From Hydrolagus colliei (Eukaryota), in contig CM068750.1 of the NCBI GenBank assembly GCA_035084275.1, positions 10,726,001 through 10,790,000 on the forward strand: a stretch of DNA of 64,000 bases, read 5' to 3'. Numbering within the stretch: position 1 is the first letter of the stretch; the number at the start of each line of letters is the position of its first letter. The notes under the pieces were generated by a model, which worked only from the letters and a program-made list of their open reading frames with translations, did no database searches and had not been told where the DNA came from. The translations under genes were made by a program, and so were the position numbers. Below are positions 29,284 through 37,900 of this stretch, one piece after another.

Positions 29284-30592
29284 CGGAGTAATGCAATGAG
29301 CCAAATTGTCCTTTCTGGGGCTATCTGGAAAGTGAAAGAAAGCTCTTGTTTTAACCCATGCCCACATCCATCACATAACTGTATTACTGTATTTTTTTAA
29401 ACTTTTTTTCCATTTCAGTTCTCTCGTCGGTACGTTAAATGGACGCATTCTAGTCATTGCATAAACTTCTTGTTCCATCAAATGGTGAACAACCAATAAT
29501 GGCAGGTTTCGGACAAGCGTTTTATTCATTAAAAATGCAACACCCAGTCCTTAAATGTTGAGTACCTGCATCTCTGCGCTTACATTTGCTGAGTCCATTT
29601 ACAATGCATTTTTTTGGGGGGTGTGGGGGCAATTTAAAAAAAAATGAAATAATGTCAAACAAGCACAATTAAAAGATTGCAGTGATACAGAACTAGCGCA
29701 GTTTGCGTCTTTCTTTCAGACACTGTTCCAAAATCAGTGTGGAATACACATTTGTAAACGTTTCTAAATTGTTATACAAAAATGTTGATTTAAGTACTGC
29801 TAAATCACAGCAACAACAGAGGTTCAATGCAAACAACAGCTGTGTCTATTTTTTTAAAACAATCCCAATGACGATTTGCGCATATAAGCATGCACTCAGC
29901 TAATCTCGCTTTTTCTTCGTGTTAATCAACACTTTCCTTCCTGCATATCAGAATACAAGCACTATAGTTACTCCACATCAGTAAATGTTTATGTAACCTG
30001 TCCTTTCCCAGGAATCCGGTTACGCTAAATCATTTCATGCAAGAGTGGGTAAGAAAACGAGTGGGCCATGCTATCCTTCAGATTTATATGGAAAAATGTA
30101 AGAGAAAGGTGAACTAATTCTAAATTAAAATACGAGTGCGCGCGCAGAGAGGCGGATATACAGCCCCCAAAACAATCTACGACCTTGTACAGATTTCATT
30201 GGTGACCTTTTGGCCTCAGATATGTTGCTGTATTAAAAATGGAGAACTCCAGTAGCGTGTCTAAAGGCAATAGCGCGCAGCCACATCAAAGGATTCAAAC
30301 GTGTAATTTACTTTGCAATATCTTAGTCGCTTTTCACAAGACCAACAAAGTAGGGCTTTTCACTGGAGGCCCTAACCTCCCAACCACCCCGAAACACAGC
30401 TATTAATATTCAGATTTACCCGCGACACAACGTTTAACACGCTTCTCAACAAGTTCCACGTAACATCTTTACCGTCTTGGAGAAGTCGATGTATTACATT
30501 ACCGAACCGCCGTGAACATAACTTAAAATATAAACGTTTTTTCTTACATATGTTCACATTTTGTACTTGCTATCGGAAAGGATTATCGAGTC

Positions 30593-30625
<33 letters not shown>
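30593..30625 (+). repeat. Compound (TG)n(AG)n microsatellite
   Basis: Directly visible. Confidence 0.9.
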
Positions 30626-30627
<2 letters not shown>

Positions 30628-32279
30628 CAGAGCCACCCCCGAGCGTGAGAATCTGTATTTTACTCCCGATATATTAAATTTCAAATGAAAGTATATTTAA
30701 AGTAGATATCGTATTATGAAACCGTAACAGTAAGAGGCCGCAGACTGTCGCTTCAGCGTTGCAGTGTGCGCTAGGATTGGTTTGGTGGGTTTAATGCTAA
30801 TGTCTTGGGCTCCTAAATAGTGCCAGTTAGTTCAACGTTTGCACCAAAAAAAAAGGCGTTTCGACTTGTACTGATCCCGCCAAAGCCATGGGGAGAAAAA
30901 ATCATGACCTCAACAGACATTGGTGCACACAAAGGCGGCCTGTATTGCCCCCACCCCCCTACCACCCCCTCAAGTCTAAAGCGATTACTGTATTACGCTA
31001 ACAATGTATAAAATGGTGAGAATTACAAGGCGACCCACAACGCGATCAAATGCGTTTGAAAATATCTGCAGAGATATAATGTCCTCCTTCCGTTATTTTC
31101 CCACGGTTCATAGTGAATAGATATTTAAAGGGAGAAAGACACTGTACAATCGGGATGGAGACCCGTGTTTAACAAACACTGTTTGTTGCGGGGTTTTTTT
31201 CTTATAAATAAACCCAGGAGAGGCTGAGTTGTAACCAGCATGAGAATTCCTCCCCCCGTCATTACTGTTCGTTATACTCCCTGTCTCTCTCTCTCTCTCT
31301 CACCCTCTCTCGTCTGTCTTTCTCAAGTGCCTTCCGATTATTTCGGAGAAGGCTGCGTTCCTCAGTAACACTACCGCGCGTCTGTGTGTGTGTTAAAAAA
31401 AATCAGAAATGTAGCCATGAATTATTGACATCATGCAACATCCGCCATTAAGGTGTCAATGTGACTGGCAATGAATGGAAAGAATAAGGTTACATTTCTG
31501 CCGGATTATGGCCAACGTGAGGAAGAGGCGGCCTGGCTCCTGCCTGGCTCTCTCTGCCTTGCCCTGCCTCTCTCTTGCCTTGCCCTTGCCCTGGCTATTG
31601 CCTTGCCCGTGTATCTCAAGCACCCTTTGCCTTTTCCTTTCCTCTCCAACGCGGGATGAGAAGTGAGCAGTGCCCCTGAAACCATCACACTTGCCTTCGG
31701 TCCTCTCGGCCCCACCACCACCCGATCGCCGCTCTTCTCTTATTTGCAGAGATGGCTCTCCTGCCACAGCTACAATTTACAGCACAAAGTCGAACAAGCC
31801 TCCAAATTGTTCTACACCCAATTGGATTGATTTTTGTTTGTGGGGGGAAAGAGGGGAGGAGGGAGGAGGAGAAGGCAAGAGGGGAGTCTGTAACTCAGCA
31901 ATATTATGTTTAAAAATCGAACCCCAAAAAAACTGAAGTTAGGGAGGGGGGTGGGGGGGGCGGGTGTATTTGTATGTGAGGGATGGAGGGGGGGGGGGTA
32001 GGGGGGGGCAATAGTTAAAAACCAGCTTGAAGAATGGGGGATGTTTATTATGGGGAAGGATGAGAGCAGCCTCGGAGGTATAAAGTAGTTCCTCGCTTCT
32101 TTCCACCCCCCCCCCCCCCCCCCCACCGACTCTCGCTTTATGGATTTGCGCAAAACTAACTTTGCAATAATAACGGGACATATCGACCGGGAGGGGGCGT
32201 GTGGGGGGGGTGGGGTGGGGTGAGGCGAGCTCAACGTGGCTACGATGATGCTGTGAATGGTATTTTTTTTAGGTGGGGG

Positions 32280-32620
32280 GTCTGGGTGGGTGGGGAAGGG
32301 AAGGGAGGAGGTGAGCGAGAGGGAGGGAGAGGGAGGCCAGGCCGGGCCGGGTGCTGACTGAGTGAGTGATGCGGTGGCTGCACAGCCCCGGCCTCTGAGG
32401 GTGGGATTGCTCCGCGTGGTTGCGGTGAGGGGGCGGGGCTGACTGAGCGACTGATTGATTGATTGACAGGCCGGTGGGCGGGAGGGAGGGCCGAGGCGAG
32501 GCGCTGATTGGCCGCGGTCTAGCCGGACGCACGGGCACGCGCGGCGCTCTGATTGGCCGCCTGGTGAAAAGGTTACAGTGAGGGTTTGAGCCGAGCACCG
32601 AGTGTCCGCCTTAACATCAC
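32280..32620 (+). promoter_or_regulatory. FOXG1 proximal promoter / CpG island
   Basis: Very GC- and CpG-rich. GC box GGGGCGGGGC at 32430-32439, Pbx/Prep-Meis decamer TGATTGACAG at 32460-32469, and two inverted CCAAT boxes CTGATTGGCCGC (ATTGG at 32507 and 32552), directly upstream of the leader. Confidence 0.8.
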
Positions 32621-32677
32621 AGCGGCTGAGAGCACAGAGCTGGCGGCGCCCGACCTGCCATTGAGAACATGAAGTAG

Positions 32678-32774
32678 TCTCTCTCTCTCTCTCTGTAAAT
32701 CTCTCTCAATCTTTCTCTCTCTCTCCCTTTCTACATACACACACACACCTACAACACAGACACACACACACACA
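32678..32774 (+). repeat. (CT)n/(CA)n microsatellites in the putative FOXG1 leader
   Basis: Directly visible dinucleotide repeats. Confidence 0.9.
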
Positions 32775-32786
32775 TATGCAAACTAC

Positions 32787-32846
32787 ATGAGTTGCCAGCG
32801 ATTGCAATCCAACTGTGCCGCTGCAGTTTCTTTCACCCGTGTGTGA
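32787..32846 (+). other. Upstream ORF ([19 protein letters not shown]) whose TGA overlaps the FOXG1 ATG
   Basis: ATG at 32787, 19 sense codons, TGA at 32844-32846 sharing its A with the ATG at 32846-32848. Translation is not demonstrated. Confidence 0.6.
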
Positions 32847-34081
32847 TGTTGGACATGGGAGATAAGAAAGAAGTGAAAATGATCCCCAAGTCGTCGTTCA
32901 GCATAAACAGCCTGGTGCCCGAAGCGGTTCAGAATGACAACAACCATCACCACCGACCGGCCCCCGACGACGAGGACAAGAACGTTTCGCCAGCCTTGGA
33001 GTCAAAGTCTGAAAACATTCCCAGCAAAACTGACAGCAGCTCCGGGGAGCAGCCCTGCGCGGAAGAGAAGGAGAAGCAGGAAGAGAAAAAGGCAGACGGT
33101 AAAGAAGGGGACGGTGGAAAGGAAGGGGAAAAGAAAAATGGCAAATACGAAAAGCCTCCGTTCAGTTATAACGCGCTGATCATGATGGCCATCCGGCAGA
33201 GTCCGGAAAAACGATTGACATTGAATGGGATCTACGAATTTATCATGAAAAATTTCCCCTATTACAGAGAGAACAAGCAGGGCTGGCAAAACTCCATCAG
33301 ACATAACTTGAGTCTCAACAAATGTTTCGTGAAAGTTCCGAGGCATTACGATGATCCTGGGAAGGGAAACTACTGGATGTTAGATCCATCGAGTGACGAT
33401 GTGTTTATAGGTGGCACCACAGGAAAACTCCGGAGGAGGTCCACAACATCAAGAGCAAAGTTGGCTTTCAAGCGAGGAGCGCGCCTCACTTCTACTGGAC
33501 TGACATTTATGGATAGGGCAGGTTCTCTATATTGGCCTGTATCTCCATTCCTATCCCTCCATCACCCCCGGGCCAGCAGCGCCTTGAGTTATAATGGAAC
33601 CACCTCAGCTTATCCGAGTCACCCGATGTCCTACAGCTCGGTGTTATCTCAGAACTCTCTGGCGAACAACCACCCGTTTCCAACTTCAAATGGGTTAAGC
33701 GTAGATAGACTTGTAAACGGAGATATTCCTTATGCCACCCACCACCTAACGGCAGCGGCTGCCCTGGCTGCCTCGGTGCCCTGTGGTTTGTCTGTTCCGT
33801 GTTCAGGCACGTATTCCTTAAACCCATGCTCAGTGAATCTTCTGGCAGGACAGACGAGTTATTTTTTCCCTCATGTTCCTCACCCTTCAATGACTTCTCA
33901 AAGCAGCACTTCAATGTCGGCCAGGGCAGCGTCCTCCACATCTCCACAGGCGCCTTCAGCTCTTTCCTGTGAGTCTCTAAGACCCTCTTTGCCAAGTTTC
34001 TCCACAGGACTTTCTGGAGGGCTTTCTGATTACTTCACACATCAAACCCAGGGCTCCTCTTCAAACCCTCTAATACACTAA
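32846..34081 (+). CDS. FOXG1: Forkhead box protein G1 (BF-1), single coding exon, 411 aa
   Basis: Starts [24 protein letters not shown], the FoxG1 N-terminus with the eh1 motif FSINSLV (32897-32917). Forkhead domain [30 protein letters not shown]...GKLRRR at 33152-33439. [17 protein letters not shown] follows, and the C-terminus is [18 protein letters not shown]. The true start is the ATG at 32846, not the TTG at 32792 used by the ORF track. Confidence 0.98.
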
Positions 34082-34387
34082 CAAACCCCCCTTCGAACAG
34101 ACTGTAAGTTAATGTTTTACACATATTTCCATTGTAAATAATTCTCAAAATAAGAAGCCCAGGTATTTTTATTCAAGTCCCCATTTTTGTCAGCATTTTT
34201 TTGTCAAATCCCATAGGGTTGTTTGTTTATTCAATTTCAGCAATGTGCAATTTGGGGCGGTTTAGATAGGAAACCACTGATAATAGTTAAATTAATGTAG
34301 ACTGTGTATTTTAAAAAAATGACTGCATTCCAACTAAAATTTAACGAGGCAGGTCTGTTTTAATCAATCCACCTCTGTCCATGTTTG

Positions 34388-34395
34388 CAGTATTA
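34388..34395 (+). promoter_or_regulatory. miR-200b/c/429 8-mer seed site
   Basis: CAGTATTA in the 3'UTR. The miR-200 family is a known Foxg1 regulator. Confidence 0.75.
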
Positions 34396-34586
34396 TAAGT
34401 TATCATGGTTCTGCTGGTGGCTGCTGATTCCTTTATTGGCGGATCTTATATTTTCAATCAACTTATACAAGTTCAACGCTTAATTTGTATTTAAACACTT
34501 CACTAGTGATATTACTTAAACATGCCTAACCGTTCGGTCATTTTTTTTTTCCATTTGGTTACAAAATGGTTCATGTTTACTTTTAG

Positions 34587-34594
34587 ACCAAAGA
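34587..34594 (+). promoter_or_regulatory. miR-9 8-mer seed site
   Basis: ACCAAAGA in the 3'UTR. miR-9 regulation of vertebrate Foxg1 is established. Confidence 0.85.
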
Positions 34595-34967
34595 CGGGGC
34601 TAGAAATGCACTCCTTGTTTAAAAGAGCAAGTAATTTGAAAGTAATTCATATTTTCCAGTTTACAATACTGCCTGTATAAGAATCAGAAGGGGACACAGT
34701 TGATGATTGCCTTTAGTTTGTGTTGTGCATAATTCGATGTATGTGATCACTAACAGGTCCCTTTTCTTTTCTTTATGTAAATGTAGTGAGATGTGTAAAC
34801 CTATTGTACTTAAAGGTAAACTTTGCGGACGTGTAACCTGTGTTGCTTAAATGCCTCATAAAATTCCTTGAGTGATTGTTAATGTCGTCTCTAAATTTCA
34901 TGATTGTGATATTGTGATCATATGCCCGTGTTGTCACTTAAAATGTTTACTATACAGAAGGCACCGA

Positions 34968-34973
34968 AATAAA
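34968..34973 (+). terminator. Polyadenylation signal
   Basis: AATAAA about 890 nt after the stop, followed by GT/T-rich sequence (gtgttgatatcttgtccttttctt). A second AATAAA lies at 35097-35102. Confidence 0.75.
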
Positions 34974-37900
34974 AAAATAGGTTACATTCAGAAGTGTTGA
35001 TATCTTGTCCTTTTCTTCACCACCACTGAGCCAATAGTTGTCTGCAGTCCTATTTTAAACTATAGTTTTCATGATGTAATTCCTGTAGCCCGTCTAAATA
35101 AACCAGAGTCTGCTAGAAGGGCAGTGATTGTCCAATTAAACTTTCAACATTTTTTAGGCCTAAATTCTAAATCAATCATTCAGAGTGTCTACTGGGGTTC
35201 AGTTTAACTGCCATCTGCATTTTTTCCCCTGTTTACCGCTTACAATACATATTTTTTGCAATTATTGTACACATTTCCTCAACATAATAAGAATAAGAAT
35301 ATATTTTCGGTCTTGCACATAAAATCCGTGCACTTTAACTAAACTAAATCAAAAGAGAGTTCACAACTGCTTATGGATTCTAATTAGATTCCTTTTGCGA
35401 TGCCTTTTGGAATATATTTAGCCATTGAATTTTTAATTAAACATTTGAATCAGTTTGCATTACTTCTTGGAGCACACGTTGCTTTAAAGCAACCTTATCG
35501 CATTGCTTTATTTGCCTCTTTCTTGAATCTACTTTCACTGGGAGAACAAGACATTCCCAGTAATATCACACACTGCAAGTAAATATTGGTAGAAACCCAT
35601 AATGCGCAGATGATAGTTTAAATATCGCAGAATATAGCATACTTCCCAAATGTAAGGTCTTATTTAAAAAAACATCGAAGTTGTTAGGAATTTCATTTGA
35701 TAGTTTCTGAATTGATAGTTTTATGGCCAACGTTACTGCGGTTGTTATTGTAAAATGTCAAATTCTAAAACCACCACGCAACGCGAGGCCAATTCAAATA
35801 AATACTGAGTGTAAATGAACACAGCTGTATCGGCTGTGATCTGGGCTTCAACAACACTTATTTGCTTGAAGTGAAGCCCAGCCAGGACATTGTGAATCAT
35901 ACCTTGCACGAAGACGTTATGATTATACAGTATTTAATTTTATTCTTAAAAAGTAACTCACGGCACTAATTTGCAGGCAATACATCTTTTTTGCATTGCT
36001 ACTTTGGCTCCCCCACCCCCCCTAAAATATTAAATATGTTTTGACTGGACAGATTTCCACAAGAAGACATCAGATATTGTGAGAAAACGTTTGCTAACAA
36101 TTTCCCCGCTAATCTGATCCGCCTGTAGGCCTGTACGGGGTGATTTGCTCATTTGTTCGTTTTGTATTGTGTTAAATTTGTCCACGAGTAATGTAACAAG
36201 GCCAGTACCTTTCACAATAGGCCTGAAGGAAAATGAATCTCTCCTCTAGATGCTATCACTCCAATGTTAAACGGGGTGATACGAACGGGACGTGCATACT
36301 GTGGATTAACAAGAAGATTTATCCGGAAAGAGAGAACTGAGAGTTTGAGAGAAGCAGTTGCTATAATCTTTAAATAATACTTTTTTCCCCTTAAAAAAAC
36401 GTGAAGCCTCATTTGCATAGTGCCAAGACGCGGTGACGTGTTCTCTGCCGAGCTCTCACTCTGAATACGTATAACAGAGAAAATACTGTATATATCCACT
36501 TCCCCCTCTCCCCTAAATCAGCCGTACAGACCCGGGGTAGGGGGGGGGGGGGGGGGGGAATGATCAATCTGCTTACAATTCGGAAATTAAAGTATAGTAT
36601 AAGATGTGTAATACAATATTAAATATTGGTCTTTTGGCTCCAACACAGGCTCGTTAGTTGGTCAGATCGTTCTGTCTCATTCTGGCATTTCTGCAGTTGT
36701 GTTCTTTGTGAAGGTAGCTTTTTTTTGTAACAAAAAATATGACAACACCGTCTCCAATCTAACTTCGCCATGATTCAGTTAAAAGTTCGAGAGTTGTTCG
36801 TAAAGTGCGGATGTACAGTTTTATGGAAGGAGCCGCTGGACACCCCGAAGCTTGGGAGACATGGGCGTGGAGCGGGGCGAGGTTTCTGGCCCTTGGGTAA
36901 GTTCATTTATTATTCAACCTTACTAAGAGTTCTTGTGGGGGGGGGGGTTTCTATCGAAGGCTCTCTGAAAATATATATACAATTGCAAAGATCTGAAAGC
37001 CCCCACCATTGCCCTCACCCAAATGCAGCATTGCGTTGTGCGGAACAAAGCTAGAAAGCTATCTTGATCTTCTCGGTGTTATTTAGACCTAAATAAGAGT
37101 TGCAATGTTTCTAACTTCGGAAGTCGAACTAATCAATGGAACTACTGTTCGTTGTTGGTTTAAGTAGACGGTACCACAAAGGTATTAAATTATACGACAT
37201 TCGTGTCATTGGAACGAGACAGCCTTGTAAAATGAAGATAAATATTTGTAACCGCGCTGATTTTATTTAAACTGATTGTATTGGCTCCATGTTGTACACA
37301 GGCAACGGGCGAATGTGACGTAATTTATCATAAAAGCATTGCACTGATTATTTCCACATTAAAACCACAACTTTTAAAACAAAATCAGTGGGGTGTGTTT
37401 GTGGGAATATGTTTCAACAGTCGACAAGTTAGACGAGACAATTGGAACCCGATTCTGTATTATCACAGTAAGACTTCTATCATTGTCAGCATAGTTCCGA
37501 GAACTAACCCGGAGTGGGAGGAGAAATTGGATCTTCGCAGTATTTCTATGTACAGACTCGGTTAAATTGCTCGGCTGTGATTGAGGGAATATCCAACGCG
37601 AAAACAAAACAAATCTCAAATTACCCTCACACCAAAGAACATCAAATTCATCAGCAAGACGTCTGGCAAATATTATATAAAAGTGGGAGAACCAGCTTTT
37701 CTGCTCTGCGGAGCCAAGCGGCTTATAACCTTTAATCTAAAGGTTCCCAATAATCAGGGCAATATGTCGAGGTAATAGATTCATACCATAGCTATTGTTT
37801 CCCATGACAGGAATATCAGATAATTCGGTTTTCATTCTTTGGTGCAATAATGTGTTGAGTGACTTGAACGTTTTTAAAAAAATGTTCTTTCTAAATATTG

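Follow-up and report, generated by a model that had tools for sequence, protein, structure and literature searches.

On balance, the ATG at position 32787 of the window (the whole stretch of DNA that was analysed, 64,000 nucleotides) is probably a conserved, weak-context and likely inhibitory upstream start codon (uATG) of FOXG1 that would be read by leaky scanning; the stop-start junction by which its 19-codon upstream open reading frame (uORF) ends on the FOXG1 initiator would be lineage-specific and likely incidental. This reading draws on (i) the sequence, (ii) a peptide similarity, (iii) human coordinates together with a Ribo-seq catalogue entry, and (iv) an indel count in one shark-like sample, from which we infer the homology of the human start, the polarity of a frame change, repression and the sensing of start-codon stringency. 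FOXG1 is dosage sensitive and haploinsufficient, and a translated uORF, if kept from cartilaginous fish to human, would represent a direct control point for the level of the protein. In that case the intact allele is predicted to yield more FOXG1 in haploinsufficiency once the uATG is blocked or edited, and 5' UTR variants would deserve re-reading where they make the uATG stronger or change its frame.

The FOXG1 Coding Sequence and Its Leader

The FOXG1 protein encoded in the window (Table 1) shows 96.6% identity to Callorhinchus milii FOXG1 (P0001) and 89-93% identity to shark and ray proteins, so that its source is likely a chimaera. The frame-0 extended N-terminus served as the query for the collection of homologues, with 131 proteins obtained from 139 candidates, the best 120 of 131 being used, and cluster look-ups adding 112. 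Among 227 FOXG1-like proteins, the motif MLDM occurs in 195; it forms the start of 184 of these, the other 11 being N-extended. A second foxg1 gene, a divergent paralogue (G000:C3:63699051-63700232, minus strand), encodes 394 amino acids, is 58% identical, and displays Leu at position 4 with Met12 kept; its leader lacks GTGATG, comprises uATGs at -307 and -257 only, and gives no clear match to the conserved uATG block discussed below. Because all of the 194 aligned proteins share Met1-Leu-Asp-Met4, and since the paralogue keeps Met1 and Met12 without Met4, sequence comparison favours Met1 as the working start of FOXG1 and leaves the proposed switch between Met1 and Met4/Met12 unsupported.

Table 1. 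Features of the FOXG1 locus, in positions of the window
Feature	Position	Strand	Remark
Promoter-like cluster	32431-32556	+	GC boxes, decamer, reverse CCAAT boxes
Minimal uORF MK-stop	32669-32677	+	-3 A context
CT and CA microsatellite spacer	32678-32775	+	
uORF MQTT-stop	32776-32790	+	weak context (-3 C), beside CA repeat
19-codon uORF	32787-32846	+	uATG at -59; ends on FOXG1 ATG
GTGATG initiator context	32843-32848	+	TGA thereby at -2
FOXG1 CDS	32846-34081	+	uninterrupted ORF, 411 aa
FOXG1 in-frame Met4	32855	+	
-1-frame TAA	32863-32865	+	ends at +20, same place as human ouORF end
FOXG1 in-frame Met12	32879	+	

The leader contains the three uORFs of the original prediction, which were all reproduced together with their two junctions: the TGA of MQTT-stop overlaps the ATG at 32787 (ATGA), and the TGA of the 19-codon uORF has its A in common with the FOXG1 ATG (TGATG, 32844-32848). 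The start contexts were likewise recovered as weak at 32787 (-3 T/+4 A, suboptimal), intermediate at Met1 (-3 G/+4 T) and strong at Met4 (-3 G/+4 G), with Met4 and Met12 lying 8 and 32 nt past the stop of the 19-codon uORF, respectively. Valine precedes Met1 in 10 of the 11 N-extended FOXG1 models, which fits GTG as read at the protein level only and is compatible with an old GTGATG context that would place a TGA at -2 regardless of the uORF frame; the model P0002 (Asp at -1), which looks like a spliced ab initio model, was given little weight. Frame 0 is open for 150 nt 5' of Met1, and the near-cognate codons TTG (32792), CTG (32813) and GTG (32843) within 32792-32845 could yield N-extended FOXG1. 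Inside the CDS, an 81-codon ATG ORF in the +1 frame (32934-33179) is the first out-of-frame ATG ORF of at least 20 codons past the uORF stop.

Upstream of the uORFs, the promoter-like cluster comprises GC boxes at 32431 and 32476, the decamer TGATTGACAG at 32460, the sole copy on both strands of the window, and reverse CCAAT boxes at 32507 and 32552. Because of these GC and CCAAT boxes, the sequence suggests a transcription start site 5' of all three uATGs. The decamer is presumably of PBX/MEIS type; within 32452-32556, TGATTGAT repeats end in TGATTGACAG beside two CTGATTGG boxes (32504, 32549), a layout that we take to combine PBX/MEIS-PREP and NF-Y elements in one promoter. Upstream of the promoter, 31974-32239 holds long homopolymer runs of G and C, and the 16 Rfam matches found on 30000-36000, all below the gathering score, fall on these runs. 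At 32600-32775, RNA structure does not exceed that of shuffles (z -0.37). No RNA entry is listed for the stretch. One sequencing run (X1) aligned on repeats only and a single-cell run (X6) gave no leader match; neither bears on expression.

The stop-start geometry was compared with a null in which the TGATG junction is fixed, using 5000 dinucleotide shuffles for each of three leader lengths (100, 200 and 270 nt). In that order of length, (i) a uORF ends at the junction in 44%, 34% and 28% of shuffles, (ii) a stop-start-chained pair ends there in 2.0%, 2.8% and 2.7%, and (iii) at least three uATGs occur in 34%, 45% and 65%. On the + strand of the whole window, 40 of 1203 ATGs have a uORF ending on them via TGATG or TAATG; an overlapping stop occurs on 164 ATGs, with a uORF ending there in 40 of the 164. 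The geometry alone is near chance and, frequent as it is in both shuffles and window, needs conservation to carry meaning; the conservation of the uATG block, on the other hand, is not near chance.

Probable Conservation of the Upstream ATG and Drift of Its Frame

Codons 1-13 of the 19-codon uORF match the first 15 residues of two proteins, the macaque FOXG1 model P0105 (Macaca fascicularis) and P0121, with 11/13 identities and one 2-residue gap, at an alignment score reached by 0 of 5000 shuffles of each; the similarity to mammalian leaders is real at the peptide level in the macaque model. P0105 displays a 58-residue N-extension (174 nt) in which uATG and CDS share one frame, a frame that may reflect an assembly or annotation error of 1 nt, given that this is the sole such start among the 195 MLDM proteins. 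P0121, an ENA protein, comprises the mammal-type peptide for 27 residues followed by unrelated sequence, and is possibly a spliced or chimeric contig. Residues 1-40 of P0105 matched 1 of 353 short-protein candidates (P0121) and 1 of 1851 near-length proteins (P0105 itself); P0121 retrieved from a representative library, besides itself, P0234, whose match lies outside the block, and no further block homologue; metagenome scans for relatives gave 0 among 588 stretches. The metagenome sequence L009, the only match among those listed for 595 stretches, was rejected as an unrelated chance match.

The human counterpart is documented in the available parts of supplementary files 3 and 11 of PMC10908861, where transcript ENST00000313071.7 carries an ATG overlapping uORF (ouORF) at 319:514 (195 nt) and the CDS at 494:1964. 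These coordinates place the human uATG at -175 and the end of the ORF at +20, corresponding to 64 codons in the -1 frame that run past Met1 and Met4. The ouORF is called translated by RibORF from pooled Ribo-seq, with non-zero codes for RiboTish, RiboTricer and PRICE and 0 for RiboCode, and is present in the high-PepScore sheet (PMC10908861). Among the rows available there, a further human FOXG1 row describes a CTG uORF (119:296), and none a short ATG uORF; two ClinVar variants are annotated inside the ouORF, both rated likely benign. The macaque and human distances, 174 and 175 nt, are one base apart, which ties the macaque peptide to the human uATG. The human ouORF start is very likely the macaque uATG, as judged from coordinates and not from human letters, and the 32787 uATG is likely the start codon catalogued as translated in human; together, the P0105/P0121 peptide match and the human coordinates argue for a uAUG conserved from fish to mammals. 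For mouse, the brain tables searched, from the available part of PMC13396407, list only a CTG uORF for Foxg1.

The frame of the uATG has probably drifted. Organism B, known from two contigs of one sample (X2 and X3) whose RNA origin is a guess, aligns over 32785-33213, and its contigs extend 85-95 letters further upstream. The organism is, by its sequence, shark-like because at about ten positions the listed CDS substitutions, read by hand, turn window residues into those of P0007, a shark protein of 409 aa. Its ATG is presumably present, as the alignment reaches 32785, and no substitution falls at 32787-32818 among the differences listed; the indels among these comprise +1, +2, +3 and -4 within the uORF, with -6 within the CDS. 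The resulting net +2 (among the differences listed) places the block at -61, in the human frame class, compared with -59 in the window. The expectation of a uATG that shares its frame with the TGA of TGATG across gnathostomes thus fails in human (-175, end at +20) and, by indel count, in organism B, the census covering three lineages plus gene models and the distances being 59, 61 and 175 nt in the window, organism B and human, respectively.

The stop at +20 is present in the window although the 32787 uATG is out of that frame. In the -1 frame this stop needs the Asp codon GAT, so that Glu lineages (most teleosts, amphibians) cannot end an ouORF there; of 194 FOXG1 proteins, 62 have Asp and 132 have Glu at residue 6, which is encoded with residue 7 at 32861-32866. 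From parsimony over three lineages, which sets the polarity, we infer that the overlapping form is ancestral and the stop-start form of the window derived; a 2-nt assembly error in the window may also be the source of its frame. The TGATG junction would likely stem from two independent events, the old GTGATG context and a net 2-nt change of spacer length in this lineage, the latter moving the uORF into the frame of the TGA at -2. Caution is advisable, as frame drift can produce, in passing, a TGATG junction that looks striking in a single genome.

Acanthomorph teleosts may depart further. Five models (P0012, P0018, P0024, P0055 and P0186) carry, 18-19 codons upstream and in the frame of the window, a weak QLC-like trace of the block, and a sixth (P0006) a weak QLC-like trace in another frame, with block alignment scores of 12-21 for the six models, which may be spliced. 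By eye, none of the six can encode an ATG at the homologous place, and the uATG may be dispensable in some acanthomorph teleosts, where it has apparently been lost. P0015 gives a hint of the human frame.

Proposed Leaky Scanning and Competing Explanations

The favoured reading is that the 32787 uATG, which likely dates back to the jawed-vertebrate ancestor, likely draws some of the scanning ribosomes away from the FOXG1 start. Ribosomes taking it would be lost to Met1 in either frame: in human, and probably in sharks, they would read past Met1 in the -1 frame and terminate at +20, and in the window they would stop on Met1, too close for initiator tRNA to be reloaded. Translation of FOXG1 would be damped, the weak context letting most ribosomes leak to Met1, and the output would depend on start-codon stringency (eIF1/eIF5), like that of Hox uORFs. 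Repression of FOXG1 by the uATG is likely by analogy with other leaders, where (i) out-of-frame uORFs with a substantial CDS overlap are repressive and are bypassed through leaky scanning (PMC10275272, available part), (ii) closeness of the uORF to the CDS is correlated with stronger repression (PMC4890304), and (iii) Hox uORFs of poor context that are conserved from fish to mammals lower reporter output and are sensitive to eIF1/eIF5 (PMC8892498, available part). The translational rheostat of the original prediction survives as a plausible dosage rheostat, shorn of the switching between Met1 and Met4/Met12.

That the block of about 45 nt is instead a DNA or RNA cis-element, either a protein-binding site or a downstream promoter element, with ATG and translation incidental, is unlikely. 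The unsubstituted stretch of organism B (among the differences listed), the apparent, weak persistence of the block in acanthomorph models without the ATG, and the confinement of conservation to the 5' part of an ORF whose length and frame vary would all suit such an element; the human ORF is nevertheless catalogued as translated (PMC10908861, available part), and the block has no Rfam match. In addition, vertebrates show a depletion of uATGs close to CDS starts (PMC4890304), so that long retention implies tolerance or use.

Rather unlikely, too, is a gnathostome-old uATG module whose first 13-15 codons would encode a conserved nascent peptide and whose spacer indels would switch the ORF among three states: overlapping the CDS in human and shark, stop-start in the chimaera, and lost in some teleosts. 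If true, it would act as an evolutionary dial on FOXG1 dosage in the forebrain and offer an unrecognized target for raising FOXG1 in FOXG1 syndrome.

An ATF4- or Shank1-like chain, in which MK-stop would load reinitiating 40S subunits and MQTT-stop would carry ribosomes past the uATG, with FOXG1 rising when ternary complex is low, appears quite improbable. The layout resembles that of ATF4, with a short uORF1 well upstream and an inhibitory uORF2 abutting or overlapping the CDS: MK-stop, with A at -3, lies 109 nt 5' of the uATG and 168 nt 5' of Met1, MQTT-stop ends 55 nt before Met1, and the chained pair arises in only 2-3% of shuffles. Moreover, uORF0 of Shank1 shields uAUG3 via overlap (PMC3922875, available part), and the upstream links of FOXG1 would act as shields or ATF4-like loaders, not as a relay. 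Against such a chain, the available rows of the human catalogue hold upstream the CTG uORF only, with no short ATG uORF, and MQTT-stop has a weak context and borders a microsatellite.

The idea that the N-terminal 13-15 residues are a conserved peptide, either a stalling peptide or a microprotein, is very doubtful: the 11/13 identities from fish to primate, the two indels within the block, both of 6 nt, and the high-PepScore entry of the human ORF (PMC10908861, available part) are offset by differences in length (19 versus 64 codons), frame, stop and C-terminus, unlike the conserved length and frame of conserved-peptide uORFs, by the count of two indel events only, and by the library search with P0121, which found no further block homologue.

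Coupled termination-reinitiation, by which ribosomes would restart on Met1 at UGAUG after the 19-codon uORF, as in caliciviruses and influenza B and as proposed for SLAMF1 and GAD, is similarly hard to credit. The UGAUG overlap is exact, within the geometry of a stop and start overlapping or within about 20 nt (PMC10275272); cellular UGAUG precedents exist (PMC5972666), and UGAUG-joined reporters serve to measure reinitiation (PMC9856671), all according to the available parts of these papers. However, neither human nor organism B keeps the frame, such an ending has a chance of 28-44% with the junction fixed, and TGGGA, TGGG and GGGA (for the UGGGA motif 1 in the available part of PMC5972666) have 0 matches in the 300 nt upstream, which deprives the viral-type mechanism, invoked earlier by precedent, of its motif there. 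With an overlap of 1 nt at UGAUG, ordinary reinitiation is likely prevented unless the 40S subunit is retained by a TURBS-like element (PMC5972666, available part). By its sequence, the TGATG stop-start is likely a lineage quirk and not a ribosome relay.

Published Record and Known Systems

The human ORF is known already as a catalogue row, and the kind of element is well known. Among the matches listed in a literature search of titles and abstract openings, with several supplements and most subscription papers outside its scope, no FOXG1 uORF, no repression of FOXG1 by a uORF and no functional study of the human ouORF were found; conservation of the FOXG1 uATG to cartilaginous fish with frame drift was likewise not found in print. 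FOXG1 is absent from the available main text of PMC7530721, on conserved-peptide uORFs, and from the supplements of PMC10032668; it occurs in correlation rows only in the searched supplements of PMC13577902, as available, and in the background gene list only (Dataset S3) in the available part of PMC8892498, and the part of PMC12635981 at hand does not treat its leader.

Among published systems, the junction is shared with the long isoform of SLAMF1, whose uORF has 29 codons, and with GAD, in which the stop of a short uORF overlaps the main start at UGAUG as in the window (PMC5972666, PMC10275272, available parts). SLAMF1, GAD and the TURBS-dependent viral cases nevertheless carry UGGGA or a related motif, whereas the window is without it and its overlap is not conserved. 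Shank1 (uORF0/uORF3; PMC3922875) and ATF4 (uORF1/uORF2) resemble the window in a first uORF that overlaps the start of an inhibitory second one and in a minimal uORF upstream; function was demonstrated in both, according to the material available, whereas the chain of the window is read from its letters.

The Hox uORFs (Hoxa1, Hoxa9 and Hoxa11; PMC8892498, available part) offer a parallel in several respects, including (i) a gene for a developmental transcription factor, (ii) a uAUG conserved from fish to mammals, (iii) a suboptimal context, and (iv) a length of 7-21 codons. Inhibition and a response to eIF1/eIF5 were established for the Hox uORFs, whereas FOXG1 is known here from sequence, and its frame and stop position drift. 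The human ouORF belongs to the same gene, is ATG-initiated, lies out of frame with the CDS and likely starts at the orthologous uATG; it is a catalogue row (PMC10908861, available part) of 64 codons overlapping the CDS, compared with the 19 codons that end on the initiator in the window.
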